Shown here: positions 2,039 through 21,455 of the stretch, in pieces
Numbering within the stretch: the first letter of the stretch is position 1
How the letters are laid out: every line of letters starts with the position of its first letter
From: Candidatus Beckwithbacteria bacterium GW2011_GWC1_49_16
GTDB taxonomy: Bacteria > Patescibacteriota > Microgenomatia > UBA1400 > CG1-02-47-37
Direction: 5' to 3'
Assembly: GCA_001029675.1 (NCBI GenBank)
Contig: CP011210.1
Coordinates: forward strand, 453,663-517,662
DNA length: 64,000 bases
Made by a program: the position numbers and the translations under genes
The notes under the pieces: model-generated
Database searches by the model: none
The model's input: only the letters and a program-made list of their open reading frames with translations
Told to the model about the DNA's origin: nothing

Positions 2039-2311
2039 TTACCGATTCAGATACATAATTTCCTTAAAAACTCTTCTCAGTTGAATTTTCAACTCGGCCC
2101 TACCTTTACCGCCTTTTAAGTAGACCTCTCGTCCTTTTGCGTCAGCTCTGTTTTTGTAGGCTTCGTAGTAAATTAACTCTAACGGTAAACGATGTTTGGT
2201 TGCTTTAACGTAGCCGTTATTGTGTTTTTTAAGCCTCGCCTTTAAGTCGGGAGTATAGCCGGTGTAAAGTTTTCTATCTTTCTTTGAGAATAAAATATAG
2301 ACGTAGTGCAT
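2039..2311 (-). CDS. GIY-YIG nuclease family protein
   Basis: 90 aa. MHYVYILFSKKDRKLYTGYTPDLKARLKKHN matches the GIY-x10-YIG motif and the conserved Arg of the UPF0213-type small GIY-YIG proteins. It is the first AT-rich gene of the island. Confidence 0.8.
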   Translation of the reverse strand: MHYVYILFSKKDRKLYTGYTPDLKARLKKHNNGYVKATKHRLPLELIYYEAYKNRADAKGREVYLKGGKGRAELKIQLRRVFKEIMYLNR

Positions 2312-2340
2312 CGCGGTTTTCGTTAATCTGGCTTCGTTTT

Positions 2341-2395
2341 GATAGAGGTGAGTCCGCTTAGCGGACTATCACCTCGCTGAGCGAGGTGAGCCATA
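2341..2395. repeat. palindromic stem-loop cluster with mutually exclusive pairings
   Basis: GGTGAG-[AGTCCGC TTAG GCGGACT]-ATCACC-[TCGC TGAG GCGA]-GGTGAG. The central TCACC can pair with either flanking GGTGA. It lies in the divergent intergenic region between the GIY-YIG gene and the 2574 gene. Confidence 0.3.
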
Positions 2396-2455
2396 CGGGT
2401 CTGGAACCCTTTAGTCCCATAACCAGTAACTTTCGTAGTGTATCATATCAAGGCT

Positions 2456-2498
2456 AAATGAGACAAATGAGACACTATAAAAAGGGGTGTCTCAAATG
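2456..2498. promoter_or_regulatory. operator-like array: two direct copies and one inverted copy of (A/T)TTGAGACA
   Basis: The sequence reads aaatGAGACAaatGAGACActataaaaaggggTGTCTCaaatg and lies about 75 nt upstream of the 2574 start codon. A TATAAA element sits between the half-sites. Confidence 0.4.
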
Positions 2499-2573
2499 CT
2501 AGTGATGTAGTTTGATATAGACAGCCTTGATATTGGAACTCACATCCTGTAAGTAATATACTTGAACTAATAT

Positions 2574-3218
2574 ATGGCAAAAAAGACAAAACTAGTGAGC
2601 ATGCGAAAACCGATCTATTTAGTGCTATTTATAGTAATTCTCGCTCTCGGTGCTCTAATCTGGTACAAAAACTGGCAAAGCAAGTTTGAGGCTCCGAAAC
2701 AAGGTACTCAATTAATTGGGTTTACGATTAAGAAAGACACTTCCTTAATGGCGGTAGTTGGCGATCTTCACTATTACGGATTTATTAAGGATGAGGATGC
2801 CTTTAAATACGCTTTAGAGCACACAAAGGACAATACTCCAGGCAAGGCGAATGCTCTTACCATTGGTAATAACACTATCGACCGAGAAGCTAGATATAAA
2901 ATCTCTCAGAGTATGACTGCTTGGCAAATAGCAGACGTACTGCTTAACCAAGGTGAACTTAGTACATGCGACCATGGCTGTCCTGATAGTAATTTTGATC
3001 CAGAACTTCTTCCTGGTGGGGATTTAGCTCCTACTCTGAAAGAAAAGTATTCTGGGGTCAAAACTTACGAAGATTGCACTAAGGCAATTGGTCATGACGG
3101 AGGTCAACTCTCTTCAGAGCAATATGCCCAAAGAACAGGAATCAGAAGATGTGTTGCCCCTGATGGTCGAGAATTTACTCAAGGAAAAGAGGGTTGGTCG
3201 GACGTTCCTACTCCTTAG
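2574..3218 (+). CDS. hypothetical membrane-anchored or secreted protein
   Basis: 214 aa with an N-terminal TM/signal anchor (IYLVLFIVILALGALIWY) and a Cys-containing extracytoplasmic domain. No recognisable family. Confidence 0.5.
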   Translation: MAKKTKLVSMRKPIYLVLFIVILALGALIWYKNWQSKFEAPKQGTQLIGFTIKKDTSLMAVVGDLHYYGFIKDEDAFKYALEHTKDNTPGKANALTIGNNTIDREARYKISQSMTAWQIADVLLNQGELSTCDHGCPDSNFDPELLPGGDLAPTLKEKYSGVKTYEDCTKAIGHDGGQLSSEQYAQRTGIRRCVAPDGREFTQGKEGWSDVPTP

Positions 3219-4012
3219 CTAGTTATTTTTTCTTTATTTACCAGCGCCACGCTTTTGTTTAGCTCGTCCTTCAAAACGCTGAGCTCTGTTAACAACCCCT
3301 GTTTTCCAAAATATTTGGCTGCCACCTCCATTATTCTGCGTAACATATCAAATGCTCCAATCAAGTTGTTTTCCTGACCCTTAGTTTGTGGACCAGCAGA
3401 AAAGGTGGTGACATCATCAATTTTTGCAGACACTAATTGATTCAATACAATTGGCTGTGAATGAGCGTGCTGACTGGCTAAATTGTAGAAAACATCGTAC
3501 TCCCAACTACACCCAGTCTTCTTACAGAGTTCCTTAAAACTATAGCCTGACCATTTATACTTATCTGGCCTCTTATACCTCTTGTAAAACTGGATCTTTG
3601 CTTTGAGTCTTGCTTGGTAAATATCCAACGGAAACTCTTTCTTAAGCCTTCTTTTATTTTTTGCGTAGTCGAGCATGAAAAATTGTTGTACTTGGATATG
3701 CTCAATATATCGCCTAGCTCGAGTGTCTCTTTTTGTTTCATTAAGAATGTAGGTTAAATTTACCAAATCCTCAAACATTGAACGGACGATACTGTCCGCC
3801 TCCATACCATATCCAGACTTACACAAAATAACAGTAGCAGAATGACTGCGAATAGCTTTAGCAATTAAAGCTAGAAGAATATCAGTTTTGCGTGTTTTTG
3901 ATGGTGCCGTAAAACTGTTGAAGTGTTTTCCAGCCGCCGTTAATAAACGATCATTAAGTTCAAATAAACTCAATGAATCTTCAATGACACTTTTTGTCTG
4001 GTCTCTATTCAT
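3215..4012 (-). CDS. hypothetical protein, last gene of the LexA-CBASS operon (possibly HEPN-like)
   Basis: 265 aa. Its start overlaps the upstream gene's stop by 4 nt. It contains an R-x4-H (RRYIEH) and HAH residues. A JAMM-like spacing was checked and does not fit. Confidence 0.5.
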   Translation of the reverse strand: MNRDQTKSVIEDSLSLFELNDRLLTAAGKHFNSFTAPSKTRKTDILLALIAKAIRSHSATVILCKSGYGMEADSIVRSMFEDLVNLTYILNETKRDTRARRYIEHIQVQQFFMLDYAKNKRRLKKEFPLDIYQARLKAKIQFYKRYKRPDKYKWSGYSFKELCKKTGCSWEYDVFYNLASQHAHSQPIVLNQLVSAKIDDVTTFSAGPQTKGQENNLIGAFDMLRRIMEVAAKYFGKQGLLTELSVLKDELNKSVALVNKEKITS

Positions 4013-5679
4013 AGGTTAATTTTATTTCCCTTGCTATCGGCAATACTCATCTGTATTTTAGACTTTTGCTTCGGATATTTCTTCAAAAACTCTTGGTTTT
4101 CACTGACTAAAGATACGGTGTAATAAACAGTTCCATCTTTCCTTTTCAAATCTCTGCCGTGGAGTAAGCCCTCTCTCCTAAGTTTTTTAATCGAAGATGG
4201 ATGGACTCCGTGATTAGATGTAATCTGCAATCTTTCAAACCAGTTACTTTTATCGTCATGGCGATGCTTGAGGGGTGGAATAACGCCTTCTTTGATATTG
4301 TTCCAGCAATCTCTGCACCATAAACCGTTTAATGTCCACCAGATATCCTTTCCGTAGTAATACTCTCCACAAATTCCACAAGTATATGGACCTTTACCGT
4401 CGTCAAGGTAGAATCCTTCTGGCTCTTTCTCAAGTCTTCTTTTTCGTGTTGCTTCGATTCCATCAAATTCACCAGACATTCTTGCGAGTTGAACCAGGTT
4501 ATGACTCATATACTTAGCTCGTTTTTCTGAGTCACTGTTTGATTTTGGAGTTTTAACTTCTTTTTTGGCTCCAACCAATTCAAGTAAATCTTCTTCTTGC
4601 TCATATGCTTTCAGAGTGCCAGACAGATATCCAAGGCGATAGCGGATTCCATCACTCATAAGTCTCCAGTTGGTGTCTTCTAAAGTATCTTTCAGGAGTT
4701 TCTTGAGGGTTGCTTCGCTTATATTAGGATTTCTTGTTGAGTTAGCATCTAAAACATTAAAAGGAATCGTAACAAACCTGCCCATATCAGGTTTATCCAG
4801 CGTGAACTTAACGTATTTCTCCTTTTCCAATTTTTCAGTAAGCAATTTCTCGATTTCAAGAACGGTTAATCTTTTTAGATTGACTGCTGTTTGGTAGGCT
4901 TTGTCATCATATTTCTGTTTTTCTTCTTCATACACTTCATGACCTACTTCCATTGCTTCGAGTGTTTCGACGTGTTCTATGCCATCTTTTTCGTTTAAAC
5001 AAAACTCTCCTCGATACTTTTCAAGAAGTTTTTTGCCTTCTTCTTCCTTTTTCTTTTGCTCTTCCTCCCATTTCTTATGCTCCTCATCATGTTTAGCAAG
5101 ATCCTCAATTTCAGTTTTTGTATAACCACAGGCTTTGCATTTATGTTTCCAAGTAATGACTTTGCCTTTTCGAGTAGCTTTTATATCCATTTCTTCTTTG
5201 CACTTTGGGCAAAGGTCAGGCTTTGATAAGCGGATCTCATTATCGTCATATACCCACTGTTGTTTCTCGCATTTACTGCATTTAAAAAGAAACATCATGC
5301 GCATGATCGGGTTATCGTATGAGTAATCAAGGTGTTTTGAAGAATTGAAAGACATTGAACCGCCACAGAGGGGGCAAACAATTCCTTCTGGGATTGGAGT
5401 GTGATCTTGCTTATCCTGTTTTAGTTTGTCTTCTTCCATCCACTTCTGGATAGTTTCTTGTTTCTTTTCATACCTTTTGCCTTTTATAGTAAAAAGGGTA
5501 CGATGAAGCATAAGGTTTGCGTCATGCGATTTGACTTCTTGGGAAATATCCTTAAGCTCTTCGCTAGTAAGACTAGTTTTATAAATATCCTGAAACATTT
5601 TTACCGTATCAAGACACTCTTCAATGGTATGAAGGTCGTAGCGGTCAACATAATTTTGTTCATCATTTAGGTATTGCAT
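4009..5679 (-). CDS. multi-zinc-ribbon protein with a coiled-coil/Lys-Glu-rich linker, function unknown
   Basis: 556 aa with three CxxC...CxxC clusters (CPLCGG...CSKC; CPKC...CKAC; CGICGE...CRDC). The gene is translationally coupled on both sides, overlapping its neighbours by 17 nt and 4 nt. Confidence 0.5.
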   Translation of the reverse strand: MQYLNDEQNYVDRYDLHTIEECLDTVKMFQDIYKTSLTSEELKDISQEVKSHDANLMLHRTLFTIKGKRYEKKQETIQKWMEEDKLKQDKQDHTPIPEGIVCPLCGGSMSFNSSKHLDYSYDNPIMRMMFLFKCSKCEKQQWVYDDNEIRLSKPDLCPKCKEEMDIKATRKGKVITWKHKCKACGYTKTEIEDLAKHDEEHKKWEEEQKKKEEEGKKLLEKYRGEFCLNEKDGIEHVETLEAMEVGHEVYEEEKQKYDDKAYQTAVNLKRLTVLEIEKLLTEKLEKEKYVKFTLDKPDMGRFVTIPFNVLDANSTRNPNISEATLKKLLKDTLEDTNWRLMSDGIRYRLGYLSGTLKAYEQEEDLLELVGAKKEVKTPKSNSDSEKRAKYMSHNLVQLARMSGEFDGIEATRKRRLEKEPEGFYLDDGKGPYTCGICGEYYYGKDIWWTLNGLWCRDCWNNIKEGVIPPLKHRHDDKSNWFERLQITSNHGVHPSSIKKLRREGLLHGRDLKRKDGTVYYTVSLVSENQEFLKKYPKQKSKIQMSIADSKGNKINL

Positions 5680-6496
5680 TCTTTTTGTTTAATCCTTTTA
5701 AACTGAATACTGGCTGTTTAAAATGAGATCCACCGAACATGCTGTTCCATTCATCTTTGTCATTTATGTAGAAACTAGAAATGTCTTTACTGCTAACAGG
5801 TTTTTTATAATGCAACAGGATTATTGCTCGCATATTATTCAGTAGTGAGCAGACAAAGAGACACTTCCCGAAAATTCTGCCAATCTTAAAATTCAACGTA
5901 TGCTGTAAGACTATTGGAACTCCATCTCTGGTTTCCTTAGAAAAATAAGTAATCGTACTATCGGAGTCGTTCAGCTTAAAATGTTGTCCATTCCCAACGG
6001 AGATAGAAAGAGTTGTCTGGCTATGATTGGCTTTAACCCTATAACCATGTTTATAGGCATTGAGCAGATCGTAGTCGCCTAAATAATCCTTAGCGACTTC
6101 CTTAATTAAATTTGTATAAAGATTATATTTCTCATTTGTTCCACTATTATCTTTGAGAACAGAAAAGATTAATTTAAAAAACCAGGATGAAAGTTCCGTC
6201 GTCTTAGCGAAATTCTCACTAATGAAGTTGCGAAGATTAAAAGAATCGATAAATAAGGCTGAAGGGAATCTGTCAACCGTGACCGACAAAGCATGAGAGT
6301 TAATAAATAAAATCTCTGTCGCCTGTAAATAAAGCGTATATAAATCTAAGACAACTCTGTTTTGTTTTTTCTTATCCTTCAATCTTTCAAACTTGTTATA
6401 TAGCTGGATTGTCTTTTTAGTCAAACTATCGAAATCAGCATTTTCGTAGTGTGAAAGTTTAAAATCATCCAATTCTTTTTCTAAATCCGGAGTCAT
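5663..6496 (-). CDS. hypothetical protein co-transcribed with the CBASS effector
   Basis: 277 aa. It overlaps the effector gene by 4 nt (ATGA coupling). The region is AT-rich. No recognised motif. Confidence 0.5.
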   Translation of the reverse strand: MTPDLEKELDDFKLSHYENADFDSLTKKTIQLYNKFERLKDKKKQNRVVLDLYTLYLQATEILFINSHALSVTVDRFPSALFIDSFNLRNFISENFAKTTELSSWFFKLIFSVLKDNSGTNEKYNLYTNLIKEVAKDYLGDYDLLNAYKHGYRVKANHSQTTLSISVGNGQHFKLNDSDSTITYFSKETRDGVPIVLQHTLNFKIGRIFGKCLFVCSLLNNMRAIILLHYKKPVSSKDISSFYINDKDEWNSMFGGSHFKQPVFSLKGLNKKNAIPK

Positions 6497-7119
6497 AGCG
6501 TTTTATATTCCAGTTGTTCAGCATCCTCGAAATTTTCAGCAATCATGCAGGAATACCTGTCCAAGATAACAGTCCCAGCACCTTTTCTATCTGTAAAGTA
6601 ACTACCGAGCAATTTCTTGACTGGATTCCCTACAATATCAAATACGCTTGCTCCATCATGCGGTCTGTTATTATCTCTCTTACCATAAGGTGCTTCACTC
6701 TTATACAGATAAACAAGCTTTTTTCTATCTGGTTCTTCTTCAATCTTGGCGGTGACAGATTTAGAAGCCGACGGTTTCTTAAAGAATGAGCGGACTGATA
6801 CAGAAGTAAAAGTCTGATTAATAGCAACATAAATATCAGTCTCGCCGCTCATACCTTTCTCGTCACTCTCAAATTTTAGTTTTCCTTTCCATGTTCCATA
6901 AAGAATTGGCACTCCTAAAAATTGAGCTAGATATTTAAAGATCCACTTTCTCCAAATCCATTTATCATATGTAGTCCAGATAATAACCACCAAACTAGTT
7001 GCTCCCGACAACCAACGGAACAAGTTATCGTCAATAGACTGTCTCGTTACGAACGATAAAACAAAGATAAGTACTGAATATAAGAGAATGGCAGTTTTGA
7101 TTATTCGTTGCTGATTCAT
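6493..7119 (-). CDS. 2-TM membrane effector, Cap15-like candidate CBASS effector
   Basis: 208 aa. Two N-terminal hydrophobic helices (IIKTAILLYSVLIFVLSFV; SLVVIIWTTY) are followed by a soluble domain of about 130 aa. Its start lies 1 nt after the cyclase stop. Confidence 0.55.
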   Translation of the reverse strand: MNQQRIIKTAILLYSVLIFVLSFVTRQSIDDNLFRWLSGATSLVVIIWTTYDKWIWRKWIFKYLAQFLGVPILYGTWKGKLKFESDEKGMSGETDIYVAINQTFTSVSVRSFFKKPSASKSVTAKIEEEPDRKKLVYLYKSEAPYGKRDNNRPHDGASVFDIVGNPVKKLLGSYFTDRKGAGTVILDRYSCMIAENFEDAEQLEYKTL

Positions 7120-7120
7120 A

Positions 7121-8023
7121 TTATTTATTTAATAAGTTATAGGCACTCTTTATAAATTGTTTAGCATCATCTTTGGTCCAGTTTTGTTGTCCGTGGAATA
7201 AATATTTACATCCATTTACCTCACGCCACCTACAATCTTCAGAAAGAGTGTACTCGTCTTTTAGTAAATATGTCCACACCTCCTCACATCCTCTCAAAAC
7301 AATATCACGCCAAATCTCATTATTTGTGTAAATAGGATTGCTGACGTTATATGCCAAACTTTCAATCATGAATGATGGAAAGGGCGAGGTGTTGTTATTC
7401 TCAGAAAGGTGACCGTTAACATTTTTTAGAATACGTGCCACATTTTTAAATCGCTTCGAGGTCGAAGTATTTTTCTCAATTCCATTTTCAAGATGTTGAT
7501 CAGGGTAATTGAAATGTCTAATGCCATCAGGTCTGTTTAAAATTAACTGTATACCTTGGTTGTAATTTGTAGATCCAGTCGAATAATAATACCGATATGT
7601 GGTACATGGAATTATGTCAGCATCCAGTATCTTATCTGACCCTCTAATTTTGAAAACCTTATTACCTGATGAATCGACCAAGTTCTTCCCGAACTCAGTT
7701 TCTAGTGCTTTCTGTAAGCGAAGTTTAAAATCAATTTCTGAAATGCCTGTATAGCCGAAAAGACCAGTATTTGAAAATCCAACGCCTTCAGCATAGTTCA
7801 GGTTGATCATATCTTGTAGCTCAACAGCAATATCAATGTCTGAGTCATGTCTAACATTAGTATTATTTGGATAGGATCCTTTTGCAAAAACCCTAATACC
7901 CAAGTCACTCAAATGAGTATCAACAGCTGATTTAACAGTATCTTTTGTCTTTTCTGCTCTTTCCTCCTCGTTGTTAAACCAAGGTTTGATCCAGCCAGAT
8001 AGTTGATCATCGCTAATATTCAT
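7121..8023 (-). CDS. cGAS/DncV-like nucleotidyltransferase (CD-NTase, SMODS-type CBASS cyclase)
   Basis: 300 aa. It has the Pol-beta superfamily signature FAKGSYPNNTNVRHDSDIDIAV (GS...DxD) and a downstream third acidic residue (ILDADIIP). Its size and motif spacing are typical of CD-NTases. Confidence 0.7.
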   Translation of the reverse strand: MNISDDQLSGWIKPWFNNEEERAEKTKDTVKSAVDTHLSDLGIRVFAKGSYPNNTNVRHDSDIDIAVELQDMINLNYAEGVGFSNTGLFGYTGISEIDFKLRLQKALETEFGKNLVDSSGNKVFKIRGSDKILDADIIPCTTYRYYYSTGSTNYNQGIQLILNRPDGIRHFNYPDQHLENGIEKNTSTSKRFKNVARILKNVNGHLSENNNTSPFPSFMIESLAYNVSNPIYTNNEIWRDIVLRGCEEVWTYLLKDEYTLSEDCRWREVNGCKYLFHGQQNWTKDDAKQFIKSAYNLLNK

Positions 8024-8043
8024 AGATAGTTATTTTTTATTCA

Positions 8044-8253
8044 TCACTTTGCCTTACTCCTGTTATATGGATGCCTGTTGTGCGGCATAAGTGAAACATT
8101 TAAATCTTGAGCCTTAGCTTGTATCGCCCCAGGAGTTCTACTCATCTTTAATCCAATAACTCTCGTAGGGGTGTTACCTCTCGCGAGTTTTCGTAGTTGG
8201 GATTCCTGAGTCGGAGACCATTGTTTTCCTTGATTTGCTGGTTTCTTTGTCAT
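8044..8253 (-). CDS. small HTH DNA-binding protein resembling the GcrA N-terminal domain
   Basis: 69 aa. WSPTQESQLRKLARGNTPTRVIGLKMSRTPGAIQAKAQDLNVSL follows the W-x3-E...L-x2-L...G...I...L...R...A...AK...L pattern of GcrA-type or phage HTH proteins. Its start is 2 nt from the lexA stop and its stop is 20 nt upstream of the cyclase start. Confidence 0.45.
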   Translation of the reverse strand: MTKKPANQGKQWSPTQESQLRKLARGNTPTRVIGLKMSRTPGAIQAKAQDLNVSLMPHNRHPYNRSKAK

Positions 8254-8255
8254 AA

Positions 8256-8879
8256 TTAATCACCGCCTTTCTTAATAACATCCTCGACAACGCCTTGAAT
8301 AGAGAAGTCTTCAAATAATAATATTGGTTTATTTTTTGGGTTAGTAGATTCTGGTTGAAGACGTACGTAGCCATCTTCAGGAATTATCTTCTTAATTGTT
8401 GCCTCATCACCAATAAGTGCGACTACACGACTACCGGGGTCAGCTGTTTGCTGTTTTTTAATTAGGACAAAATCTCCATCATCAATTGTTTTTCCGGAAA
8501 CTCTGGCGTTATTCATACTGTCGCCTATTGCCCGTAGGAAAAAATAATTGTCCGGAGTTCCACTGATCTTCGAAGCATCAAATTGAATGTAGGCCTCAAC
8601 ATTTTCGGTAGCTAAGAATGGAACTCCACACGCTACATTGCCTACAAGGGGAATTTGTACTTTGTCAGATGAGTCCGGTAAAGCTAATCCTCGAGTATTT
8701 TCCAGATACCCCTTTTCTTTCAGTGCATCAGTGTGTCGCTGAACGGAGCTTATACTAGCTAAACCCAAGGTCACACGAAGTTCTTCAAGTGTGGGAGTTG
8801 TACCATTTTTATTTGCCTGATCCTTAATAGAAGACAGGACTATCTTTTGCTTTGAGGTTAAAGTCTTTCTCATACGCAC
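8256..8879 (-). CDS. lexA: LexA-like S24 autopeptidase repressor
   Basis: 207 aa. The N-terminus is a LexA-type winged helix (TPTLEELRVTLGLASISSVQRHTDALKEKGYLE). It has a VACG cleavage-site-like segment, the Ser nucleophile GDSM and a downstream KK. Confidence 0.85.
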   Translation of the reverse strand: MRMRKTLTSKQKIVLSSIKDQANKNGTTPTLEELRVTLGLASISSVQRHTDALKEKGYLENTRGLALPDSSDKVQIPLVGNVACGVPFLATENVEAYIQFDASKISGTPDNYFFLRAIGDSMNNARVSGKTIDDGDFVLIKKQQTADPGSRVVALIGDEATIKKIIPEDGYVRLQPESTNPKNKPILLFEDFSIQGVVEDVIKKGGD

Positions 8880-9084
8880 TATTCTACTCTAACTAGCGTA
8901 ATTATGCAAGGGGATTAGTTATTATAAAAAGCCTGTCAAGGGGGTAATTTCATCAAACAGTTTATAAATTGCTGTGTTGATTTAGCCCAATATATCGGTC
9001 TATTTATCATGTAACCCAGGGTTTCACCCACCCCTCCGTGTCACCCGGGCTATATCAAAACGGGGTGATATTGTTATCTTAATT
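8880..9084. promoter_or_regulatory. divergent promoter/operator region between the lexA operon and the ParB-MTase/terminase operon
   Basis: Contains ACAG-N11-CTGT (8957-8975) and CTGT-N20-ACAG, neither of which is a canonical SOS box. It also contains two direct TCACCC copies plus an inverted GGGTGA (9024-9068) just upstream of the 9085 start. Confidence 0.4.
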
Positions 9085-12911: not shown

Positions 12912-13009
12912 TGATGTTGTAATACTAACTTACATTTAAGCATATTTCAAGGCTAAATGCTCGCTTTAAGCTAGTGGTGCTCTAGCTCATGGCTATCAAT
13001 AATTAGGAC

Positions 13010-13222: not shown

Positions 13223-13336
13223 TCCCGATTCATCTTCACTTTTTCAGGAAAAGCAATAATTATTTGGCGTCTCAAACTATTGAAAAATGGCAAAGATTTT
13301 TGTATGATATTGATATCAATTGGTAGGTAAATCTAT

Positions 13337-13504: not shown

Positions 13505-13506
13505 TT

Positions 13507-16017
13507 ATGCAAAAAGAAGCAAAAGCACGGATCAAAATTAACAATCTTCTTCAGGAGTCCGGCTGGAGATTTTTTGATGATGAGCATGGAACGGCGAATA
13601 TAGTTCTAGAAAACAATGTCAAATTGACAAAGCAGGTAGTTGACGAATTAGGCAATGATTTTGATAAAACCAAGAACGGTTTCATAGATTTTCTTCTACT
13701 TGATGAAAAGTGTTTCCCTTATGCAGTGCTGGAAGCTAAATCTGAGGACAAAGATCCTCTAGATGGGAAAGAGCAGGCTAGAAGATACGCCCAGTCACAA
13801 AACGTTCGTTTTATTGTTCTTTCCAATGGTAATGTTCATTACTTCTGGGATTTAGAGCGAGGCAATCCATCTTTTATTTCCTCGTTTCCCACACAAGAAT
13901 CTCTCAAACATTTTGTTTCGTACAAGCCAGACTCTAAGAAATTGACAGAAGAAAAAGTTTCAGAAGATTACATAGCTTTAACTCAAAATCCTACATACCA
14001 AAAAGATCCTCGCTGGCAAGATGAGGTACTTAAACACGATCAAATTCAAGAACAGGATTTGAAGTTTCTACGCCCATATCAACTTAGGGCCATAACTGCT
14101 TTGCAAGAATCTGCCCAAAATGGCAATGACCGTTATCTTTTTGAAATGGCAACTGGTACCGGTAAGACTCTAACCTGTGCCGCCGTTATCAAGCTTTTCC
14201 TGAAAACTGGCAATGCCAAACGAATTCTCTTTTTAGTTGACCGTATTGAGTTGGAAGATCAGGCGGCCAAGAATTTCAAAAAATATTTGGCTAAAGATTT
14301 CACCAGCGTTATTTATAAAGAAAATCGTGATGATTGGCGTAAAGCTGAAATTGTGGTTTCGACTGTTCAAAGCCTTTCAACTAATAATAAATATCAGAAG
14401 TTATTTAATCCTACCGATTTTGATTTAATTATCTCTGACGAGGCACACCGTTCAATTGGTGGTAATAGTAGAGCTGTCTTTGAGTATTTCGTGGGTTACA
14501 AGCTAGGACTTACGGCTACGCCTAAAAACTACCTGAAAGGTATTGATCCAAATCAGCTTAATGCTCGTGATCCTCGGGCTTGGGAAAAACGTCAACTTCT
14601 AGATACCTATAAGACTTTTGGTTGTGAAACAGGAGAACCAACCTTCCGCTATAGTCTTCTTGACGGTGTCAAAGAAGGTTTTCTGGTCAACCCAATAGTT
14701 GCTGATGCCAGAACGGAGATTACTACACAACTCCTTTCTGATGAAGGGTATTCTCTTTTAGTTGATACAGAAGAAGGCAAAGAGGAACAAGTTTTTTATC
14801 AATCAGATTTTGAGCGAAAGTTTTTCTCTGACAAAACTAATCTAATTTTTTGTGAGACTTTCTTAAAGAATGCCTTGATGGATCAAATCTCTGGAGAGGT
14901 TGGCAAAAGCATTATTTACTGTGTGAGTCAAAAACATGCCAGTAAAATTACACAGCTTCTAAATCAGCTCGCTGATAGTTACTGGCCAGGAAAATATAAT
15001 TCCGATTTTGCTGTGCAGGTAACTTCTAATATTCCTGATGCTCAGCAATTCACAATAGGCTTTGCTAATAACAACCTTAATGGTCACACGCCTTGGCTGG
15101 AAGGTTATAAGTCCAGCAAAACTAGAGTTTGCGTGACGGTGGGTATGATGACTACTGGCTATGATTGCCAAGATATATTAAATCTTTGTTTAATGCGGCC
15201 AATTTTTTCCCCAACAGATTTCATTCAGATCAAAGGACGTGGTACACGAAAATACGCCTTTACCTTTGAAAATCGTGAGAATGGTGAAATTGAGAAAGTC
15301 AGGGTTGATAAAGAAAAATTCAAATTATTTGATTTCTTTGCTAACTGTGAGTATTTCGAAGAGAAATATAACTATGATGAAATTCTAAAAATTCCTAAGA
15401 CAATTTCGGGCACAGGACCAGGCGGAGAACCTACGGTTAATATTGATGTGACCATTGGTATCCCAGATCCTCTCAAAACATTCCAAGAAAAAGCGATTGG
15501 TTTACAAGGAATGAAAGTAGATCGCAAGATTTTTGAAAAGTTTGAGGAAACGGTTAAGGCAGATTCTTTCATCAAAGAAAAATACGAAGCTGGCGATATG
15601 CAGGCAGTTGAGGATTATGTGAAGACTGAGGTTTTTGATAAACCTGAAGATTATTTCAATTTAGACAAGCTTCGTAAATCAGTCAAGGTTGACCGTCGGC
15701 TTTCCCTGGGAGAAATAATGGATAAGATTTTTGGGCGGTTAGATAAATTTAAAGATAAAGATGAACTTTTAGAGGAAGAGTTTGAAAAGTTTATCTCAAT
15801 TTACAAGCCAGATAGTAAGTACTACTACCCAATAAAGAATTTCCTCAAAGCTTATATTACTGATAACGAGATTAGAGAAATTGTAGAAACAAAGGAATAC
15901 GGTCGGTTTGCAACAAACCCAAAAGTATCACTAGTAGACTTTAAGGCCTTGAACGGGTACCGTGACGTCGTGCCAGAGTATGTAAAGGACTACGTATCAG
16001 TTAATACGTATATGTAA
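13507..16017 (+). CDS. hsdR: type I restriction enzyme R subunit (short form)
   Basis: 836 aa. The N-terminus is an HsdR_N-type PD-(D/E)xK domain (IDFLLLDEKCFPYAVLEAKS). SF2 helicase motifs follow: GTGKT (Walker A), DLIISDEAHRS (DEAH), and TTGYDCQ motif VI. Confidence 0.8.
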   Translation: MQKEAKARIKINNLLQESGWRFFDDEHGTANIVLENNVKLTKQVVDELGNDFDKTKNGFIDFLLLDEKCFPYAVLEAKSEDKDPLDGKEQARRYAQSQNVRFIVLSNGNVHYFWDLERGNPSFISSFPTQESLKHFVSYKPDSKKLTEEKVSEDYIALTQNPTYQKDPRWQDEVLKHDQIQEQDLKFLRPYQLRAITALQESAQNGNDRYLFEMATGTGKTLTCAAVIKLFLKTGNAKRILFLVDRIELEDQAAKNFKKYLAKDFTSVIYKENRDDWRKAEIVVSTVQSLSTNNKYQKLFNPTDFDLIISDEAHRSIGGNSRAVFEYFVGYKLGLTATPKNYLKGIDPNQLNARDPRAWEKRQLLDTYKTFGCETGEPTFRYSLLDGVKEGFLVNPIVADARTEITTQLLSDEGYSLLVDTEEGKEEQVFYQSDFERKFFSDKTNLIFCETFLKNALMDQISGEVGKSIIYCVSQKHASKITQLLNQLADSYWPGKYNSDFAVQVTSNIPDAQQFTIGFANNNLNGHTPWLEGYKSSKTRVCVTVGMMTTGYDCQDILNLCLMRPIFSPTDFIQIKGRGTRKYAFTFENRENGEIEKVRVDKEKFKLFDFFANCEYFEEKYNYDEILKIPKTISGTGPGGEPTVNIDVTIGIPDPLKTFQEKAIGLQGMKVDRKIFEKFEETVKADSFIKEKYEAGDMQAVEDYVKTEVFDKPEDYFNLDKLRKSVKVDRRLSLGEIMDKIFGRLDKFKDKDELLEEEFEKFISIYKPDSKYYYPIKNFLKAYITDNEIREIVETKEYGRFATNPKVSLVDFKALNGYRDVVPEYVKDYVSVNTYM

Positions 16018-16022
16018 ATATT

Positions 16023-19000
16023 ATGTTAACTCAAGAAACAAAACGAAAAATAGATTCAGCCAGAGATATCCTGGTTGGTAAAGTTCCTGATCCTAAAGCT
16101 CAAGTTGAACAAATTACAACAGCCATGATCTATAAATTCATGGATGATATGGATAAAGATGCTGTGGAACTTGGAGGCAAAGCTCGCTTCTTTACTAATG
16201 GATTTGAAAAATATGCTTGGAGCAAACTTTTAGATTCTAGATTGGGTGGACACGAACGATTAGACCTTTACGCTGAAGCCATAGTACAGATGTCCAGTAA
16301 TCCCCATATTCCCCAATTATTTAGGGATATTTTTAAGGACGCATTTCTACCATATCGTAGTCCGGAAACATTGAGCTTATTCCTTAAGGAGATCAACAGT
16401 TTTACATACGATCATAGTGAGGATTTAGGTGATGCTTTTGAGTATCTACTTTCTATCATGGGTTCCCAAGGAGATGCTGGGCAGTTTCGTACTCCACGTC
16501 ACATAATCGATTTTATAGTAGCTGTAGTTGATCCCAAAAAAGACGATTCAATTTTGGACCCTGCTTGTGGAACTGCTGGATTTTTAATCTCTGCATATAA
16601 ACACATTCTCAAACAACACGATGGTAGGGATGATCCGAAACATAAAGAAAAACCGTTAACACCTGACGACAAAAAGCGATTAATGAACAATCTTTTCGGC
16701 TACGATATTAGTCCTGACATGGTTAAGCTCTCCAAAGTAAACATGTACCTGCATGGCTTTGCTGAACCCAAGATTTTTGAATATGACACTCTTTCTAGCG
16801 ATGAAAAATGGGACGAGACATATGACGTAATTATGGCAAACCCACCATTTATGACTCCAAAAGGCGGCATACGCCCACACAAGCGGTTCAGCGTACAAGC
16901 AAATCGTGCCGAAGTGCTGTTTGTGGATTATATTAAAGAACACCTACGGCCGAATGGTCGAGCGGGAATTATTGTACCTGAGGGGATCATTTTTCAGTCA
17001 GGCAATGCATATAAACAACTCCGTAAAATGTTAGTTGAAGATGGTCTGTTTGCGGTAGTTTCATTACCTAATGGAATATTCAATCCTTACTCTGGGGTAA
17101 AGACAAGTATTTTGTTTTTTGATAATGTGTTAGCAAAAAGAACAAATGAAATATTGTTCGTAAAAATTGACAGCGATGGATTTGACCTCGGAGCTCAAAG
17201 AAGGAAAATTGAAAGTAATGACCTCACTGCCGCCCTGATAATTTTGAAGAAATATATAGAGGACCCCAACACTACTCTCCTAATCGAAGTAAAAAACTTA
17301 GCCACCTTGGTTTCAAAAACAAGAATTTCTGAGAAGGGTGATTATAACTTGAGTAGTGATGAATACAAACAAACCGAAGTAATAAGCAACAAGAGATGGC
17401 CAATGAAGGAATTGGGAAGTTTATTCGAAATGATAAACGGGAGAGCATTTAAAAAAGAAGAATGGAAAACCAACGGAACGCCCATTATCCGAATAGCAAA
17501 TCTCAATGACAATAATGCTGAATTCAATTATTTTGAAGGAAATTGTGATGATAAAATTATTGTCAAAAATGGCGACCTACTTTTTTCCTGGTCAGGAACT
17601 CGTGGCACTTCATTCGGCCCACATATATGGAATAGAGGCAAGGGTGTTCTTAATCAACACATATATAAATTTCAACCCTTACAAGGAGATATAGATATTG
17701 CTTTTGCTTATCTTGTTATAAAAATAATTGTTCCCGAGATCGAAGCCCAAGCTCATGGTGCTGGGGGTCTGGTACATATTACGAAAGAAAAACTTAAACA
17801 TTTTAGAATTCCTGTTCCACCACTTCCTGTTCAAAAGCAAATAGTTGAACAAATTGAAGGTTATCAAAAGATCATTGAGGGAGCAAAACAAGTTGTAAAA
17901 AATTGGAAACCAATAACTGATATCAATCCTGATTGGGAAACAGCACTGATCCAGGATCTTTGTACTTTGGTGCGTGGTAGTTCACCTAGGCCTAAAGGAG
18001 ATAAACGGTATTACGATGGAAAAATCCCCAGACTGATGGTCTCAGACGTAACTAGAGATGGCATGTATACAACTCCCCAAACTGATTCGCTTACAGAAGA
18101 AGGATCTAAGCTTAGTCGTCCAATGAAAAAGGGTGAAGTTGTAATGGCTGTAAGCGGTAATCCAGGGTTGCCAACAATTCTTACAGTTGACGCATGTATC
18201 CATGACGGTTTTGTCGGATTTAGAAAGCTGTCCAGTAAAATAATTCCAGAATTTCTATATTTTATACTTTTGCGCCAAAAGGATGAAAATAACTCTCGAT
18301 CAGTTGGTGCAGTATTTAAAAATCTAACTACAGACCAAATAAAGAAGTTTAAGATTCCTGTCCCCCCTATCAATATCCAACTTGAATTAGTTGAACAAAT
18401 AACCCAAGAGCGTCAGGTTGTTGGTGCCAATGAAGAAATCATCAGAGAGTATGAGGCTAAAATTCAGAACGAGATAAAGGATGTTAATGATGGAAAAGCA
18501 CACTCTCCCCTAAGTAAGAATCAAAATGAACTAATTAAACAGCTTAAGGACGACTTTGAGTCAATTGAGTCAGAAGTTATTAGGATGATGGGCAACAAGG
18601 AGATATTCAAAGAGATTATTGAGATCTCTAAAAGAAATAGCCAGATAAATAAGGGTAACTCCCTGTGGGACTTTCTAAAAGAAAGTTATGTTGCACTAAT
18701 GGTGTCTGCGGTTTGTAGGCAAATTGATACAGACGAACGTTCGTCTAGCTTGGTAAATCTTTTAAGAACAATTCTTTTTAACCCGACAGTTATCCAGAGC
18801 TTAAACAAGGACTGGTATAGCGAACAATATCATCGCGATAACGACATCTTTCCAGGTTTCATGGAAGGAATCGGGAAGGGTGATTTTGAGGAACACTTTG
18901 GTTCAAAAGAATATGTAGATCCAGCTATCGTTTACATGGATCTAAAGAAGCTAGAGGAAGATACAAAAGAAATAAAGAAATACCGCAATAAAAGAATTGC

Positions 19001-19184
19001 CCATTTTGATAAAAAGGAATCACTTTTCAAAGCAAATTATGATGATTTGCATAAAGCAGTAGAAACTGTACGATCAATCGCAAGTAAATATTACTTACTG
19101 CTTAAACAGGGTGGCAATGATCTTATTCCGTCTGATCAAACCGATTGGCAGGAGATACTAACAATTCCCTGGATCAAAAAATAA
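16023..19184 (+). CDS. hsdMS: type I R-M HsdM-HsdS fusion with a C-terminal HEPN/Abi-like domain
   Basis: 1053 aa. The N-terminus is an N6-adenine MTase (DPACGTAGFL motif I; MANPPF motif IV). Two HsdS target-recognition domains follow (LGSLFEMINGRAFKKEEW...NQHIYKF; LCTLVRGSSPRP...FILLRQK) around a central conserved helix. The extra C-terminal domain of about 250 aa contains RNKRIAHFD (R-x5-H). Confidence 0.8.
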   Translation: MLTQETKRKIDSARDILVGKVPDPKAQVEQITTAMIYKFMDDMDKDAVELGGKARFFTNGFEKYAWSKLLDSRLGGHERLDLYAEAIVQMSSNPHIPQLFRDIFKDAFLPYRSPETLSLFLKEINSFTYDHSEDLGDAFEYLLSIMGSQGDAGQFRTPRHIIDFIVAVVDPKKDDSILDPACGTAGFLISAYKHILKQHDGRDDPKHKEKPLTPDDKKRLMNNLFGYDISPDMVKLSKVNMYLHGFAEPKIFEYDTLSSDEKWDETYDVIMANPPFMTPKGGIRPHKRFSVQANRAEVLFVDYIKEHLRPNGRAGIIVPEGIIFQSGNAYKQLRKMLVEDGLFAVVSLPNGIFNPYSGVKTSILFFDNVLAKRTNEILFVKIDSDGFDLGAQRRKIESNDLTAALIILKKYIEDPNTTLLIEVKNLATLVSKTRISEKGDYNLSSDEYKQTEVISNKRWPMKELGSLFEMINGRAFKKEEWKTNGTPIIRIANLNDNNAEFNYFEGNCDDKIIVKNGDLLFSWSGTRGTSFGPHIWNRGKGVLNQHIYKFQPLQGDIDIAFAYLVIKIIVPEIEAQAHGAGGLVHITKEKLKHFRIPVPPLPVQKQIVEQIEGYQKIIEGAKQVVKNWKPITDINPDWETALIQDLCTLVRGSSPRPKGDKRYYDGKIPRLMVSDVTRDGMYTTPQTDSLTEEGSKLSRPMKKGEVVMAVSGNPGLPTILTVDACIHDGFVGFRKLSSKIIPEFLYFILLRQKDENNSRSVGAVFKNLTTDQIKKFKIPVPPINIQLELVEQITQERQVVGANEEIIREYEAKIQNEIKDVNDGKAHSPLSKNQNELIKQLKDDFESIESEVIRMMGNKEIFKEIIEISKRNSQINKGNSLWDFLKESYVALMVSAVCRQIDTDERSSSLVNLLRTILFNPTVIQSLNKDWYSEQYHRDNDIFPGFMEGIGKGDFEEHFGSKEYVDPAIVYMDLKKLEEDTKEIKKYRNKRIAHFDKKESLFKANYDDLHKAVETVRSIASKYYLLLKQGGNDLIPSDQTDWQEILTIPWIKK

Positions 19185-19185
19185 T

Positions 19186-19833
19186 ATGTTGGGTCAAGAT
19201 GTGACTAATAATAACCAGATACAAACATTTATAAGTTCAAATCAATTATGGATTGGTATCGTTTTGGGTTGGCTGCTCACAAGAGTCATGGAGATGTTAC
19301 GTAAACCCTCTATAAGTTTTGGACCTGCTAACGATTCTGAATTCGTTAGAGGGAATAAAAAATTTAAGTTTATAAATGTCACAGTTAAAAACGCTAAGCA
19401 AAATTTTCTGAAGAAATTTTTCTTCGGTAATCCAAGCTTAAATAATGCAAGAGTTTGGGTATCTTTTAAAGACTTTACATCTAACATTGAAATATTAAAA
19501 ATAAATGGTAGATGGGCTTCGACTAAGGAACCTGTAGATTACAGCTCAGGACAACCATTAATTGCAGAGATTCTTCTTCCTTCCCGAGATACGATTCCAC
19601 AAGGAGAAGAAGCCAATATATCAATAGCTATAAAGGAGTCTACAGAAGATTCTTTTTTTGCCTTCAACAATGATAGTTACTTGTACAACTGGAAAAATCC
19701 AGATTTTGAGCTTAAAGATAATAAATATTGGTTAGAAATACGTCTTCTGGCTGATGGAAATGAATATATTGGAAAATTTTTGTTTTCCAATCCATCAAAA
19801 AGTCTTAAAAACTTTAAGATTCACGAATCATAA
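19186..19833 (+). CDS. hypothetical protein trailing the R-M operon
   Basis: 215 aa. It starts 2 nt after the hsdMS stop and has one N-terminal hydrophobic helix. The region is AT-rich. Confidence 0.45.
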   Translation: MLGQDVTNNNQIQTFISSNQLWIGIVLGWLLTRVMEMLRKPSISFGPANDSEFVRGNKKFKFINVTVKNAKQNFLKKFFFGNPSLNNARVWVSFKDFTSNIEILKINGRWASTKEPVDYSSGQPLIAEILLPSRDTIPQGEEANISIAIKESTEDSFFAFNNDSYLYNWKNPDFELKDNKYWLEIRLLADGNEYIGKFLFSNPSKSLKNFKIHES

Positions 19834-19924
19834 TAATTACGGCTTATACTCATCAACCACGCCGTAAAGCAATTTGAAGAGTAACCCCTTTTGAGCCTAG
19901 ACTTCCACGACCCTTCCCGGTACC

Positions 19925-21280
19925 TTGTACCCTGAAATGAGTACAACATACAACCAAAATACGACGATAGAGCCACCAAAAATCGAATATTGCCTCTATG
20001 CACGAAAATCTTCGGAATCTGATGAACGTCAGGCAATGTCCATCGATTCTCAAATCGACGAAATGCTGACTCTGGCTAAGAGAGATAATCTCAAAATTAA
20101 GGAGGTTAAGAAAGAAAGTCATTCAGCCAAAATGTCTGGCTCCAGGCCAGTGTTTACTCAACTTCTTCAAGAACTACGCCAAAAGAAATTTAATGGGATT
20201 CTCACTTGGGCTCCTGACAGATTAAGTAGAAATGCTGGCGATTTGGGATCTGTAGTTGATCTTATGGATCAGGGAAAGCTAATAAAAATTCAAACCTACT
20301 CACAGAGCTTCTCGAATAGCCCAAACGAGAAATTCTTACTCATGATTCTCTGCTCTCAAGCAAAGCTTGAAAACGACAACAAAGGTCTAAATGTCCAACG
20401 AGGACTACGAACTAAGTGTGCGATGGGCTGGAGACCCAGCATAGCCCCCGCAGGATACCTTAATCAGGCTGGCGATGGTCATAAGGATGAACTCATCATT
20501 CTCGATCCCGAACGATCATCTTTCATTGCTCAAATGTTCGAAAGAGTTGGGCATCAAGGCCATAGTGGTCGAGCGATTAAGAATTGGCTTGATAGGATAG
20601 GATTCACAACCAGATTAGGAAACAAGATGCCACTAAGCAAAGTCTACTCAACACTTAATAACCCCTTTTACTATGGAGAATTTGAATTCCCAGTCGGCAG
20701 TGGAACTTGGTATCAAGGAAAACATAAACCCTTGGTTACAAAAGAATTATTCGACAAGGTTCAAGAAGTCCTCATGGTTCCACCCAAAAGTTATCACAAC
20801 AAGATATTTCCATTTAAGAGTATCTTTCGGTGTGGGGGTTGCGGAGGTGGAGTAACGGCTGAAGAAAAAATCAGAAAATTAAAACACGGCGGGTATGCCA
20901 AACATACCTATTATCACTGCGGCAGATCTCTCAATTATGAATGTGACGAGCCATATATTACAGAAGATGACTTAGTAAAACAGTTAATTGCTAATATCGA
21001 TAAAATCAAATTTAATCATACGGGGGTAACAAGAAAAATTCAGGAAGATATTGAACGGTACCACAGACTCAAAACTCAAGTACTTCATCAGGAATTTATA
21101 GATGGACACTTAGCTGAATTTAACAGAATTCCCCAGACTTCAGCTGATAAAAATGAAATGACCAAAAACTATCTATTACACATCTTGCAGATCGGAACAG
21201 CTGAGGAGCGACAGGAAGCTCTCTCATTCATTAAAACAAAATTTATTCTGTCAAAAAGAGCAATAACAATACAAAAATAG
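19925..21280 (+). CDS. large serine recombinase (integrase type)
   Basis: 451 aa. It has a resolvase catalytic N-domain (YCLYARKSSESDERQAMSIDSQ), a recombinase domain, and a zinc ribbon (CGGCGG...HCGRS...C). It lies next to the tRNA-Glu 3' end. Confidence 0.85.
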   Translation: MYPEMSTTYNQNTTIEPPKIEYCLYARKSSESDERQAMSIDSQIDEMLTLAKRDNLKIKEVKKESHSAKMSGSRPVFTQLLQELRQKKFNGILTWAPDRLSRNAGDLGSVVDLMDQGKLIKIQTYSQSFSNSPNEKFLLMILCSQAKLENDNKGLNVQRGLRTKCAMGWRPSIAPAGYLNQAGDGHKDELIILDPERSSFIAQMFERVGHQGHSGRAIKNWLDRIGFTTRLGNKMPLSKVYSTLNNPFYYGEFEFPVGSGTWYQGKHKPLVTKELFDKVQEVLMVPPKSYHNKIFPFKSIFRCGGCGGGVTAEEKIRKLKHGGYAKHTYYHCGRSLNYECDEPYITEDDLVKQLIANIDKIKFNHTGVTRKIQEDIERYHRLKTQVLHQEFIDGHLAEFNRIPQTSADKNEMTKNYLLHILQIGTAEERQEALSFIKTKFILSKRAITIQK

Positions 21281-21455
21281 CCTCAACACCAAGACTGGTG
21301 TTCTTCTCGTGGCTTAAATGCAGGGGAAAAATAGAGGGAAATCTGTGTATTACAGGATCTAAAACGACATTTCGAACAATTCGATCAAAGATTAGCAAGC
21401 AACATCGGGCTTTTCAGCGCAGGCCAACGGGTCGCGCTGAACCTTACGATATATG

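Follow-up and report, generated by a model that had tools for sequence, protein, structure and literature searches.

The window analysed here is a stretch of 64,000 nt from Candidatus Beckwithbacteria bacterium GW2011_GWC1_49_16 (GCA_001029675.1, contig CP011210.1, positions 453,663-517,662). It contains a low-GC island, inserted at the 3′ end of a tRNA-Glu gene between the atp operon on one side and rplS and pyrG on the other, in which a phage terminase and a large serine recombinase are found together with several defence genes. An earlier reading of the letters alone (the original prediction) took this island, placed at 2039-21455, for a degraded prophage turned defence island or, alternatively, for a satellite. 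We find that it is one copy of an integrative mobile element whose family is widespread in the Patescibacteria (the candidate phyla radiation, CPR), and that it may well be a phage satellite.

The element and its ends

Across positions ~2000 to ~23450, GC content drops from about 0.50 to about 0.38, and every island gene has a third-position GC content (GC3) of 0.27-0.38, versus 0.61-0.68 for atpE, atpB, a 282-aa core gene, rplS and pyrG. The low GC beyond the tRNAs is due to a separate 1.8-kb insertion (21667-23554; see below). Besides tRNA-Glu, the minus strand carries an adjacent tRNA-Lys. Genes were called with Pfam, PADLOC, PHROGs and NCBIfam, and tRNAs with ARAGORN and Rfam; over the whole window Rfam returned tRNAs only, and the GC-rich hairpin region at 2312-2430 matches no known RNA.

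The left end can be placed exactly: homology among four elements (the window and loci L012, L021 and L178) starts at GTGAGCCATACGGG, at 2386/2387, and the sequences further left are unrelated. The block that follows (2387-2426) occurs only in loci with a recombinase of the tRNA-Glu type and is 93-98% identical among them; in L021, the recombinase end falls outside the sequence compared. At the other end, the non-coding right arm is conserved in the window, L012, L011, L177 and L178. In L030, its conservation stops at GATATGTGACCC (GTGACCC), the final bases of tRNA-Glu in the window, which puts the right junction at ~21455-21461. Both junctions thus fall in the intervals in which att sites had been anticipated (2312-2573 and 21281-21455), and they have GTGA(G/C)CC in common. 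A search for direct or inverted repeats flanking the two ends gave nothing significant and no longer repeat, and a short common core without long repeats is as expected for a serine recombinase. The excised element is predicted to carry an attP junction of GATATATGTGA joined to GCCATACGGG. Related recombinases in L011 and L177 also precede a tRNA-Glu gene.

An empty site is visible in more distant relatives. L174 reads dnaE - pyrG - rplS - tRNA-Lys - tRNA-Glu - ~830 bp - core gene - atp operon, and L173 keeps the identical block order with other genes intervening. These relatives were found via protein homologues of the 282-aa flanking core protein and their contigs; a direct scan of this protein against genome contigs gave no matches. 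Neither universal conservation of the gene set at this position in the clade nor a core-like composition was found. Positions 2387-21458 of the window are one intact copy of an integrative element (19,072 bp, the right limit being approximate) inserted in an otherwise conserved host block. The horizontal acquisition at tRNA-Glu that had been proposed therefore stands, with corrected limits.

Some features of the ends are recorded here as side observations. GC-rich hairpins accompany both junctions: CACCTCGC-TGA-GCGAGGTG at ~2360-2385, outside the element, and TTCAGCGC-13 nt-GCGCTGAA at ~21413-21441, inside it. CCA(A/T)ACGGGTC…GAACC stands in direct orientation in both arms, a likeness seen by eye that failed a shuffle test. 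In L178 (at 10242-10468), the right arm abuts a gene called tRNA-Lys(UUU) by ARAGORN, despite a recombinase 93% identical to that of the window; about 1.3 kb (a 404-aa open reading frame, ORF) separates this recombinase from the arm.

Packaging, regulation and integration genes

The centre of the element is organized as originally described, with a LexA-like repressor divergent from a ParB-methyltransferase fusion and the small (TerS) and large (TerL) terminase subunits (8256-12356 in all; Table 1). TerL has no match in Pfam; its Walker A (G68-S69-K71-S72-T73), Walker B (D173-D174-E176) and nuclease (D317/D454/D457) residues, invariant across 31 homologues, are all kept. The convergent terminator expected after TerL is there as well, in the form of a hairpin that is a probable bidirectional terminator. 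The serine recombinase, which had been placed next to the tRNA-Glu 3′ end, indeed ends 175 bp from it, beside attR, and has Resolvase (PF00239, 1.5e-19), Recombinase (PF07508, 1.4e-11) and Zn_ribbon_recom (PF13408, 2.7e-07) domains.

The repressor has both a LexA winged-helix DNA-binding domain and an S24 self-cleaving peptidase domain, and scores 134.8 bits against NCBIfam TIGR00498 (equivalog cut-off 110.95). It may serve as an element-specific repressor or as the SOS regulator of the cell. In ~38 loci a LexA-like gene occupies the equivalent position and is transcribed away from the packaging operon, and other relatives have a MerR/HTH_17 protein there. The small regulator-like p69 adjoins the LexA-like gene in L026, L039, L065, L072, L217, L218 and L221 too.

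The original prediction also held that portal, capsid and tail genes are missing, and this was borne out. Pfam and PHROG searches of the island proteins gave no virion or lysis genes, the portal, major capsid, tail and lysis genes of a functional prophage (Caudoviricetes) were not found in the island, and the portal, protease and capsid of related phages have no homologue anywhere in the 64-kb window. The core module was also considered as a catalogued defence system and rejected: in PADLOC, neither TerS, TerL and the recombinase nor the LexA-type protein and p69 match a known or candidate model.

Table 1. Features of the element and its borders in the window (positions from the first nucleotide of the window; E-values or bit scores from the databases named).
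Feature	Position	Strand	Basis
GIY-YIG gene, outside the element	2039-2311	-	Pfam 3e-16
Left junction (attL) and integrase-specific left arm, starts GTGAGCCATACGGGTCTGGAACCC	2387-2426	+	Homology onset among window, L012, L021, L178
Family-wide cis element, core 2456-2497 AAATGAGACAAATGAGACACTATAAAAAGGGGTGTCTCA	2438-2535	+	
p214, N-terminal transmembrane/secreted-type, accessory	2574-3218	+	Translation
DUF5677 protein, final gene of leftward operon, cargo	3215-4012	-	Pfam DUF5677 8.8e-30
p556, multi-zinc-ribbon, cargo	4009-5679	-	CPR-restricted family
p277, cargo	5663-6496	-	ORF
CBASS effector, Cap15-like, two transmembrane segments (2TM)	6493-7119	-	Pfam Cap15_CD_rec 7.5e-15; PADLOC 2TM 6.6e-38
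CBASS CD-NTase (oligonucleotide cyclase)	7121-8023	-	PADLOC cyclase 3.3e-100
p69, small regulator-like protein	8044-8253	-	phrog_323 2e-07
LexA-type autocleavable repressor, leads leftward operon	8256-8879	-	Peptidase_S24 9e-23; LexA_DNA_bind 1.7e-12
Divergent regulatory region, repressor operon/packaging operon	8880-9084		205-bp intergenic, several short direct/inverted repeats
ParB_N + N6_N4 DNA methyltransferase fusion, core gene 1	9085-10407	+	Pfam; phrog_498 1.2e-77
TerS, N-terminal helix-turn-helix (HTH), core gene 2	10400-10819	+	PHROG terS families 6.5e-11 to 2e-05
TerL, intact, core gene 3	10812-12356	+	phrog_38 2.5e-76
Hairpin between convergent TerL and p172	12358-12393		dG -12.9 kcal/mol, z -3.83, U-rich tail
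p172, 166 aa from ATG after GGAGG, signal-peptide/lipoprotein-like	12393-12893	-	Sequence read directly
XRE/C-protein-like HTH, 70 aa	13010-13222	+	HTH_3 3e-15; PADLOC control protein 2.7e-15, capH 1.2e-12
Excisionase-family/mad1-like HTH, 55 aa, directly 5′ of hsdR	13337-13504	+	TIGR01764 36.7 vs 28.8 bits; PADLOC mad1 3e-12
HsdR, type I restriction, cargo	13507-16017	+	ResIII 2.9e-41; HSDR_N; PADLOC REase_I 1.1e-52
HsdM-HsdS-AbiU2(HEPN) fusion, 1053 aa, cargo	16023-19184	+	N6_Mtase 1e-56; Methylase_S 1e-42; HEPN_AbiU2 4e-12
p215, cargo	19186-19833	+	No family match (Pfam, PHROGs, PADLOC, NCBIfam)
Large serine recombinase/integrase, core gene 4	19925-21280	+	phrog_95 integrase 3e-58
Right arm and junction (attR), ends GATATATGTGACCC inside tRNA-Glu 3′ end	21281-21461	+	Conserved arm
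tRNA-Glu(UUC), integration target, host gene	21455-21527	-	ARAGORN; Rfam

A widespread family with four core genes

Scanned with a TerL alignment, species-representative genomes gave at least 558 matches, IMG/VR 349 and metagenomes at least 529. The best 80 from each of these three collections entered our locus set, which comprises 242 loci overall. On long CPR contigs, TerL homologues at 55-88% identity stand in the same layout as in the window. A census of 163 loci, combining tblastn with the island proteins and de novo clustering of ORFs, yielded four broadly conserved families only: TerL (163), the ParB-methyltransferase (148), TerS (at least 105) and the serine recombinase (103). In a further set of 80 loci, the ParB-methyltransferase was present in 67.

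Homologues of portal, protease and capsid are absent from 222 of the 242 loci. These capsid-less loci have both the ParB-methyltransferase and TerS upstream of TerL in 198 cases, with TerS adjoining it, and a serine recombinase in 146, lying downstream on the same strand in 138 of them. The gap between TerL and recombinase has a median of 1 kb, and the two genes are directly adjacent in 55 loci, including compact members such as L177, L178, L032 and L033. Where at least 9 kb of sequence was available past TerL, 81 of 104 such loci have the recombinase. The elements span ~9.5-21 kb, counted from their left-end site up to the recombinase. In at least six of the scanned loci, the gene next after the recombinase is a tRNA (Glu, Gln or Ser) on the minus strand, and recombinases that are 93-98% identical and have the same arms occur in four different flanks.

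The remaining 20 loci are true phages, with a portal + Mu-F fusion, an S78 protease, an HK97 capsid and a connector, and with no recombinase. Their TerLs and those of the elements form separate clades in a neighbour-joining tree. Deposited phages and plasmids contain no close TerL; the best match has ~27% identity, and the phages with these nearest TerLs are, we assume, Mu-like. Taken together, the family consists of widespread integrative mobile elements of Patescibacteria with a core of ParB-methyltransferase, TerS, TerL and large serine recombinase.

Further observations concern individual members. Two different family members lie on one contig, within 15-35 kb, in several cases: L013 and L043 (CAYOTA010000001.1), L112 and L120, L118 and L125, and L123 and L131. 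L182 has the left-end motif at 1597 and again at 16706, 2.9 kb past the recombinase, suggesting tandem or neighbouring insertions. TerL is read as two consecutive ORFs, or ~2 kb of extra sequence separates TerS and TerL, in L084, L089, L101, L103, L104, L110 and L044, which may reflect a split gene, the insertion of an intein or homing endonuclease, or a duplication. Many contigs with CPR-type elements (L013, L015, L018, L019, L023, L028 and others) are titled uncultured Gammaproteobacteria, Pseudomonadales or Bdellovibrionales; these titles are probably taxonomic mislabels of metagenome-assembled genomes.

Where synonymous divergence (dS) was estimable, pairwise ratios of nonsynonymous to synonymous divergence (dN/dS) were 0.012-0.072 for TerL, 0.02-0.14 for TerS, 0.03-0.06 for the ParB-methyltransferase and 0.012-0.06 for orthologous pairs of recombinases. 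The core genes are maintained under strong purifying selection, without decay. The recombinases of the window and L012, for example, keep 98% protein identity at a dS of ~1.0 (omega 0.016). The same pair of elements is mosaic, with 98% identity in the recombinase, 94% in p214, 86% in the ParB-methyltransferase and 64% in TerL, a pattern that, judged from these sequences, indicates recombination among co-circulating elements. The recurring layout, the separate TerL clade and the purifying selection make the retention of terL a maintained, defining feature of the family rather than an accident of decay.

A conserved site at the left end

A motif of the form AAATGAGACAAATGAGACA(C/G)TATAAAAA-GGGN-TGTCTCA is located ~50 nt in from the left junction; its core in the window contains two direct and one inverted copy of TGAGACA. 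This site is unique within the window and occurs in ~41 loci, nearly always 5′ of the ParB-methyltransferase and in the same orientation in 41 of 42 instances; about half of the sequences have GATGTAGTTTGATATA ~25 nt further along. Over ~28 nt, its identity stays at 90-100% even between loci whose TerLs share less than 50%, and it has no match in the true-phage loci. The flanking arms (LEFTa and RIGHT) follow the type of recombinase and the TGAGACA motif is independent of it, so that the most likely binding partner of the motif is a core protein common to the whole family. We regard it as a candidate packaging (pac) site for the HTH-bearing TerS, or as a parS-like site for the ParB domain.

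Defence cargo and accessory genes

Between these fixed parts lie two variable regions, the left arm and the TerL-recombinase interval, which hold mainly defence genes. For each region, our census covers the 25 Pfam families listed as most frequent. The left arms contain LexA-type repressors, type I restriction-modification (R-M), Thoeris TIR, SMODS/SAVED/4TM genes of cyclic-oligonucleotide-based antiphage signalling systems (CBASS), GNATs and HNH. The TerL-recombinase intervals contain R-M of types I, II, III and IIG, MADS-like methylases, PLD and SNase nucleases, reverse transcriptases, PIF1-type helicases and secreted DUF4352 proteins. The R-M and CBASS cargo that had been proposed for the window is confirmed; the third proposed item, a GIY-YIG gene, turned out to lie left of the junction at 2387 and hence outside the element.

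In the window, the repressor gene heads a leftward operon that runs straight into CBASS. No Cap2, Cap3 or HORMA gene, the accessory genes of CBASS, was matched among the neighbours of cyclase and effector, and by its gene content this is a type I CBASS. A LexA-type (S24) repressor heading such an operon (CD-NTase with or without Cap15) was seen in three elements, namely in the window (8879-6493, minus strand), in L217 (1929-107, minus strand) and in L038 (6625-4435, minus strand), one of which is very distant (32-34% identity, overlapping genes). By analogy with CapH/CapP control, this arrangement could be a DNA-damage-coupled CBASS; it could also be mere co-transcription of a repressor with defence genes.

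The operon continues with a three-gene cassette, p277/p556/DUF5677. p277 has no match in Pfam, PADLOC, PHROGs or NCBIfam and is 93% identical in L012. p556 (~555 aa) has three CxxC...CxxC zinc ribbons and more than 600 homologues, the named ones all from Patescibacteria. It was considered as a replicase and as a portal or capsid protein, and both were rejected, as its AlphaFold2 model (predicted local distance difference test score, pLDDT, 85; deep alignment) has no significant fold match in the PDB. Its neighbours are always variable genes of a defence-like kind (CBASS, KAP NTPase, SNase, DUF4238, DUF5677), also in islands without a terminase (L255, 10001-11665; L256, 10001-11635). Copies of p214 that are 76-94% identical occupy the same position in L012, L014, L020, L021 and L023.

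To the right of TerL, p172 has homologues (67-79%) downstream of TerL in L017, L020 and L093, and other elements carry secreted SHOCT or DUF4352 proteins in its position. An XRE-type HTH protein after TerL is semi-conserved (56 loci). HsdR, HsdM and HsdS functions are all encoded, making up a type I R-M system; the 1053-aa fusion contains two target-recognition domains of HsdS, ends in a HEPN AbiU2 domain, also matches mad2 and mad5, and recurs as the same ORF in L006-L009. From these domain matches, HsdR, the fusion and the mad1-like HTH appear to form an unusual hybrid of R-M and abortive infection.

Neighbouring insertions outside the element

The GIY-YIG gene has an intermediate GC3 (0.44), and 75 bp of host-like GC content separate it from the junction at 2387. 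As cargo of the element it was rejected: it lies left of an exact junction and is absent in two of the four elements that share the left arm (L021 and L178). The empty-site relative L174 lacks it too. Homologues (38-53% identical) lie near element ends or a target tRNA in L010 (2459-2767), L012 (301-717) and L037 (~14115). The gene looks like a separate small acquisition; it may move on its own, with a preference for the vicinity of tRNAs.

On the other side of the tRNAs, a 69-nt direct repeat (86% identical; 21667-21735 and 23486-23554) brackets the 1.8-kb segment of lower GC (21629-23523), which encodes an AAA-ATPase (22079-23413, minus strand) and an 87-aa ORF (21737-22000, minus strand). 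It contains no integrase gene and is present in all same-species contigs. The right copy of the repeat overlaps the last ~10 codons of rplS, and the segment is apparently a second insertion, in the course of which the 3′ end of rplS was duplicated.

Comparison with known mobile elements

Classical phage-inducible chromosomal islands (PICIs), including the pathogenicity islands of Staphylococcus aureus (SaPIs), share much with the element: a size of ~10-20 kb, an integrase at one end, a divergent repressor switch, packaging redirection based on terS, defence cargo and no virion genes. The PICI core is defined as an integrase, a regulator (alpA, merR or stl), a primase-replicase, a capsid-morphogenesis gene and terS (PMC10085698), and SatelliteFinder treats tyrosine and serine integrases as exchangeable (PMC10085698). 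The window element has the integrase at its end and the divergent regulator, and has terS without virion or lysis genes; yet it lacks the primase-replicase and any capsid-size gene, and it has an intact terL, which classical PICIs do not. No sequence relationship to classical PICIs or SaPIs was seen.

The only established satellites that encode their own terL plus terS are the capsid-forming PICIs (cfPICIs; PMC10085698). They resemble our element as chromosomal islands with site-specific integration, accessory and defence genes and terL, and without tail or lysis genes (PMC10085698). However, cfPICIs encode capsid, portal/protease and head-tail adaptor/connector (PMC10085698), none of which is present here. 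They also have a primase-replicase and usually a tyrosine integrase with AlpA, again missing from the window element, which instead has a large serine recombinase and a ParB-methyltransferase heading its packaging operon. The element is thus outside the PICIs (no primase-replicase) and outside the cfPICIs (no capsid, adaptor or connector). The observation that terL without structural genes is unusual for satellites holds against classical PICIs; as a recurrent and maintained feature, it defines this family.

The PICI-like element (PLE) of Vibrio cholerae is a satellite that, like the element here, integrates by a large serine recombinase; it protects its host from the helper phage. PLEs encode a replication initiator of their own, a scaffold that sets capsid size and an effector nuclease; they are not known to encode a terminase or to occur outside Vibrio. 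Tycheposons and pipolins share with the window element the targeting of tRNAs and modular variable regions that gather cargo and defence genes (10.1101/2020.12.28.424599; PMC11551731). Tycheposons differ by tyrosine recombinases and replication genes, some having terS or a capsid gene but no complete terminase (10.1101/2020.12.28.424599), and pipolins by a primer-independent PolB (PMC11551731).

The true phages of our locus set (L137/L138, L155-L171) are temperate CPR phages whose TerLs are homologous at 36-45% identity and in 6 of 20 of which a ParB-methyltransferase lies 5′ of the terminase. In these, however, portal, protease, capsid and connector come directly after TerL, there is no adjacent serine recombinase and no TGAGACA site, and TerL belongs to its separate clade. 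Phages of this portal and Mu-F kind are likely both the evolutionary source of the module and the kind of helper the element would use. The survey of satellites in PMC10085698 does not mention Patescibacteria, and we found no published description of a ParB-methyltransferase/TerS/TerL/serine-recombinase element in CPR in full-text literature searches, which mostly leave out subscription journals, so that a prior description is possible. We conclude that this is a satellite-like integrative element with an unusual core, from an apparently undescribed family.

What the element may do

Of the two readings in the original prediction, we favour the satellite. With somewhat better than even confidence, we propose a phage satellite that has a full terminase and no capsid, packages its own DNA into the procapsids of a helper CPR phage and acts as a vehicle of immunity genes. 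In the integrated state, the whole leftward operon would be expressed, the LexA-type repressor alongside CBASS and the other genes, and the repressor would shut off the divergent packaging operon. A comparable arrangement is cI-rexAB in lambda, where the repressor is co-expressed with defence genes. Upon DNA damage or infection by a helper phage, the repressor would be lost by RecA-stimulated self-cleavage, as for LexA and CI, and the methyltransferase, TerS and TerL would then be produced. The recombinase would excise the element, TerS would bind the repeat site at the left end, and the element's complete terminase would fill procapsids of a co-infecting or resident CPR phage of the portal and Mu-F/HK97 type. 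In a new cell, the recombinase would re-integrate the DNA at tRNA-Glu.

Several points weigh against this proposal. Nothing in the sequences examined points directly to excision, to packaging or to a helper, and none of 240 loci is a circular or terminally redundant contig of the kind an excised form would give. The element is fixed in the sampled population: all 24 same-species contigs (identical flanking proteins, many samples) have the island at 98.6-100% identity, and none shows an empty site. Unlike PICIs, P4 and PLE, the window element lacks a replication module, with no primase, helicase or replicase in any island protein (Pfam, PHROGs, PADLOC, NCBIfam), and the commonest Pfam families listed for the two arms include neither replicases nor virion proteins. 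The 55-aa excisionase-family HTH was considered as a recombination directionality factor, a role weakened by its mad1 match and its spot directly 5′ of hsdR, from which it rather resembles a component of the R-M/MADS cargo; no other such factor was identified. Finally, loci were taken with 10-kb flanks and thus cover linked genes only, leaving unlinked capsid genes outside their scope, and the TerL tree is midpoint-rooted and has no support values.

More tentatively, and somewhat short of an even chance, the whole family could be a new class of terminase-only satellites, probably the commonest mobile element of Patescibacteria, which would combine a complete TerS/TerL motor, a ParB-methyltransferase and a serine integrase with neither capsid nor replicase, use their own TGAGACA pac site and CPR procapsids and be the main shuttles of restriction, CBASS, Thoeris-like and other immunity genes. 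It would follow that a self-cleaving repressor of the LexA type can control CBASS.

An unlikely reading, though the best placed of the rivals, is that the terminase has another role, either interfering with the procapsids or packaging of infecting phages, or packaging DNA in situ from the left-end site by a Mu-type headful mechanism, akin to lateral transduction or gene transfer agents, into phage or unlinked capsids, whereby the element would be transduced along with adjoining host DNA. SaPIs have packaging-interference proteins that sabotage phage packaging, and Mu-type terminases start headful packaging in situ. Such a role would suit elements loaded with defence genes, and would fit the missing replication module, the lack of circular forms and the near-identical, fixed copies in all same-species contigs. 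The related phages have the portal and Mu-F fusion, the phages with the nearest deposited TerLs are Mu-like, and the conserved site is at the left end and oriented into the element; the pac site of Mu is likewise at its left end. Against it, TerS, TerL and recombinase match no defence model, and an intact TerL with nuclease and ATPase plus a conserved cis site would be needless for interference alone. In addition, the co-orientation and tight linkage with the integrase, the many integration sites and the mosaic exchange speak for selection on the element's own transfer.

Decay of a prophage, in which structural and lysis genes were deleted, terS and terL were left over and defence genes filled the space, is improbable. 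The module is clearly of phage descent, with phage-derived genes, a CI-like divergent switch and true phages in which ParB-methyltransferase precedes TerL and then portal, protease and capsid, and one relative, L255, does look decayed (truncated TerL, fragmented resolvase). However, the same layout recurs in 222 loci of very diverse Patescibacteria with a structural remnant in none, which leaves this reading unsupported. The TerLs form their own clade, dN/dS is ~0.01-0.1, the catalytic motifs are invariant and a family-specific cis site is conserved; nor would independent decay be expected to give the order TerL then serine recombinase repeatedly. Hardly credible, lastly, is a complete unconventional virus with an unrecognisable capsid among p214, p277, p556, DUF5677, p172 and p215: several of its genes lack annotation, but only four families are broadly conserved, each unknown gene occurs in at most ~10% of loci, compact members have TerL and then directly the recombinase, and p556, also found in terminase-free islands, has no capsid- or portal-like fold in its model.

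Implications for Patescibacteria

The Patescibacteria make up a large share of bacterial diversity and have tiny genomes, and their gene exchange and phage resistance are poorly understood. CRISPR is rare among them, most of the phylum lacking it (PMC6509639). The element described here, conserved in hundreds of species-level genomes, couples a complete packaging motor and a serine integrase to interchangeable defence cassettes. The family offers practical parts as well, namely a large set of serine integrases of the large type that target tRNAs and whose att sites can be defined, and a compact pair of terminase and candidate pac site, and the recurrent LexA-CBASS operon suggests a new mode of CBASS regulation. 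Among the IMG/VR contigs with a TerL relative, 62 of the 80 examined are of the capsid-less kind; if these elements are satellites, they would be behind many of the viral calls made in CPR metagenomes. They would then also be the first satellites reported for the phylum, as far as we found, and would represent a new hijacking design, with a full terminase, no capsid and no replicase.

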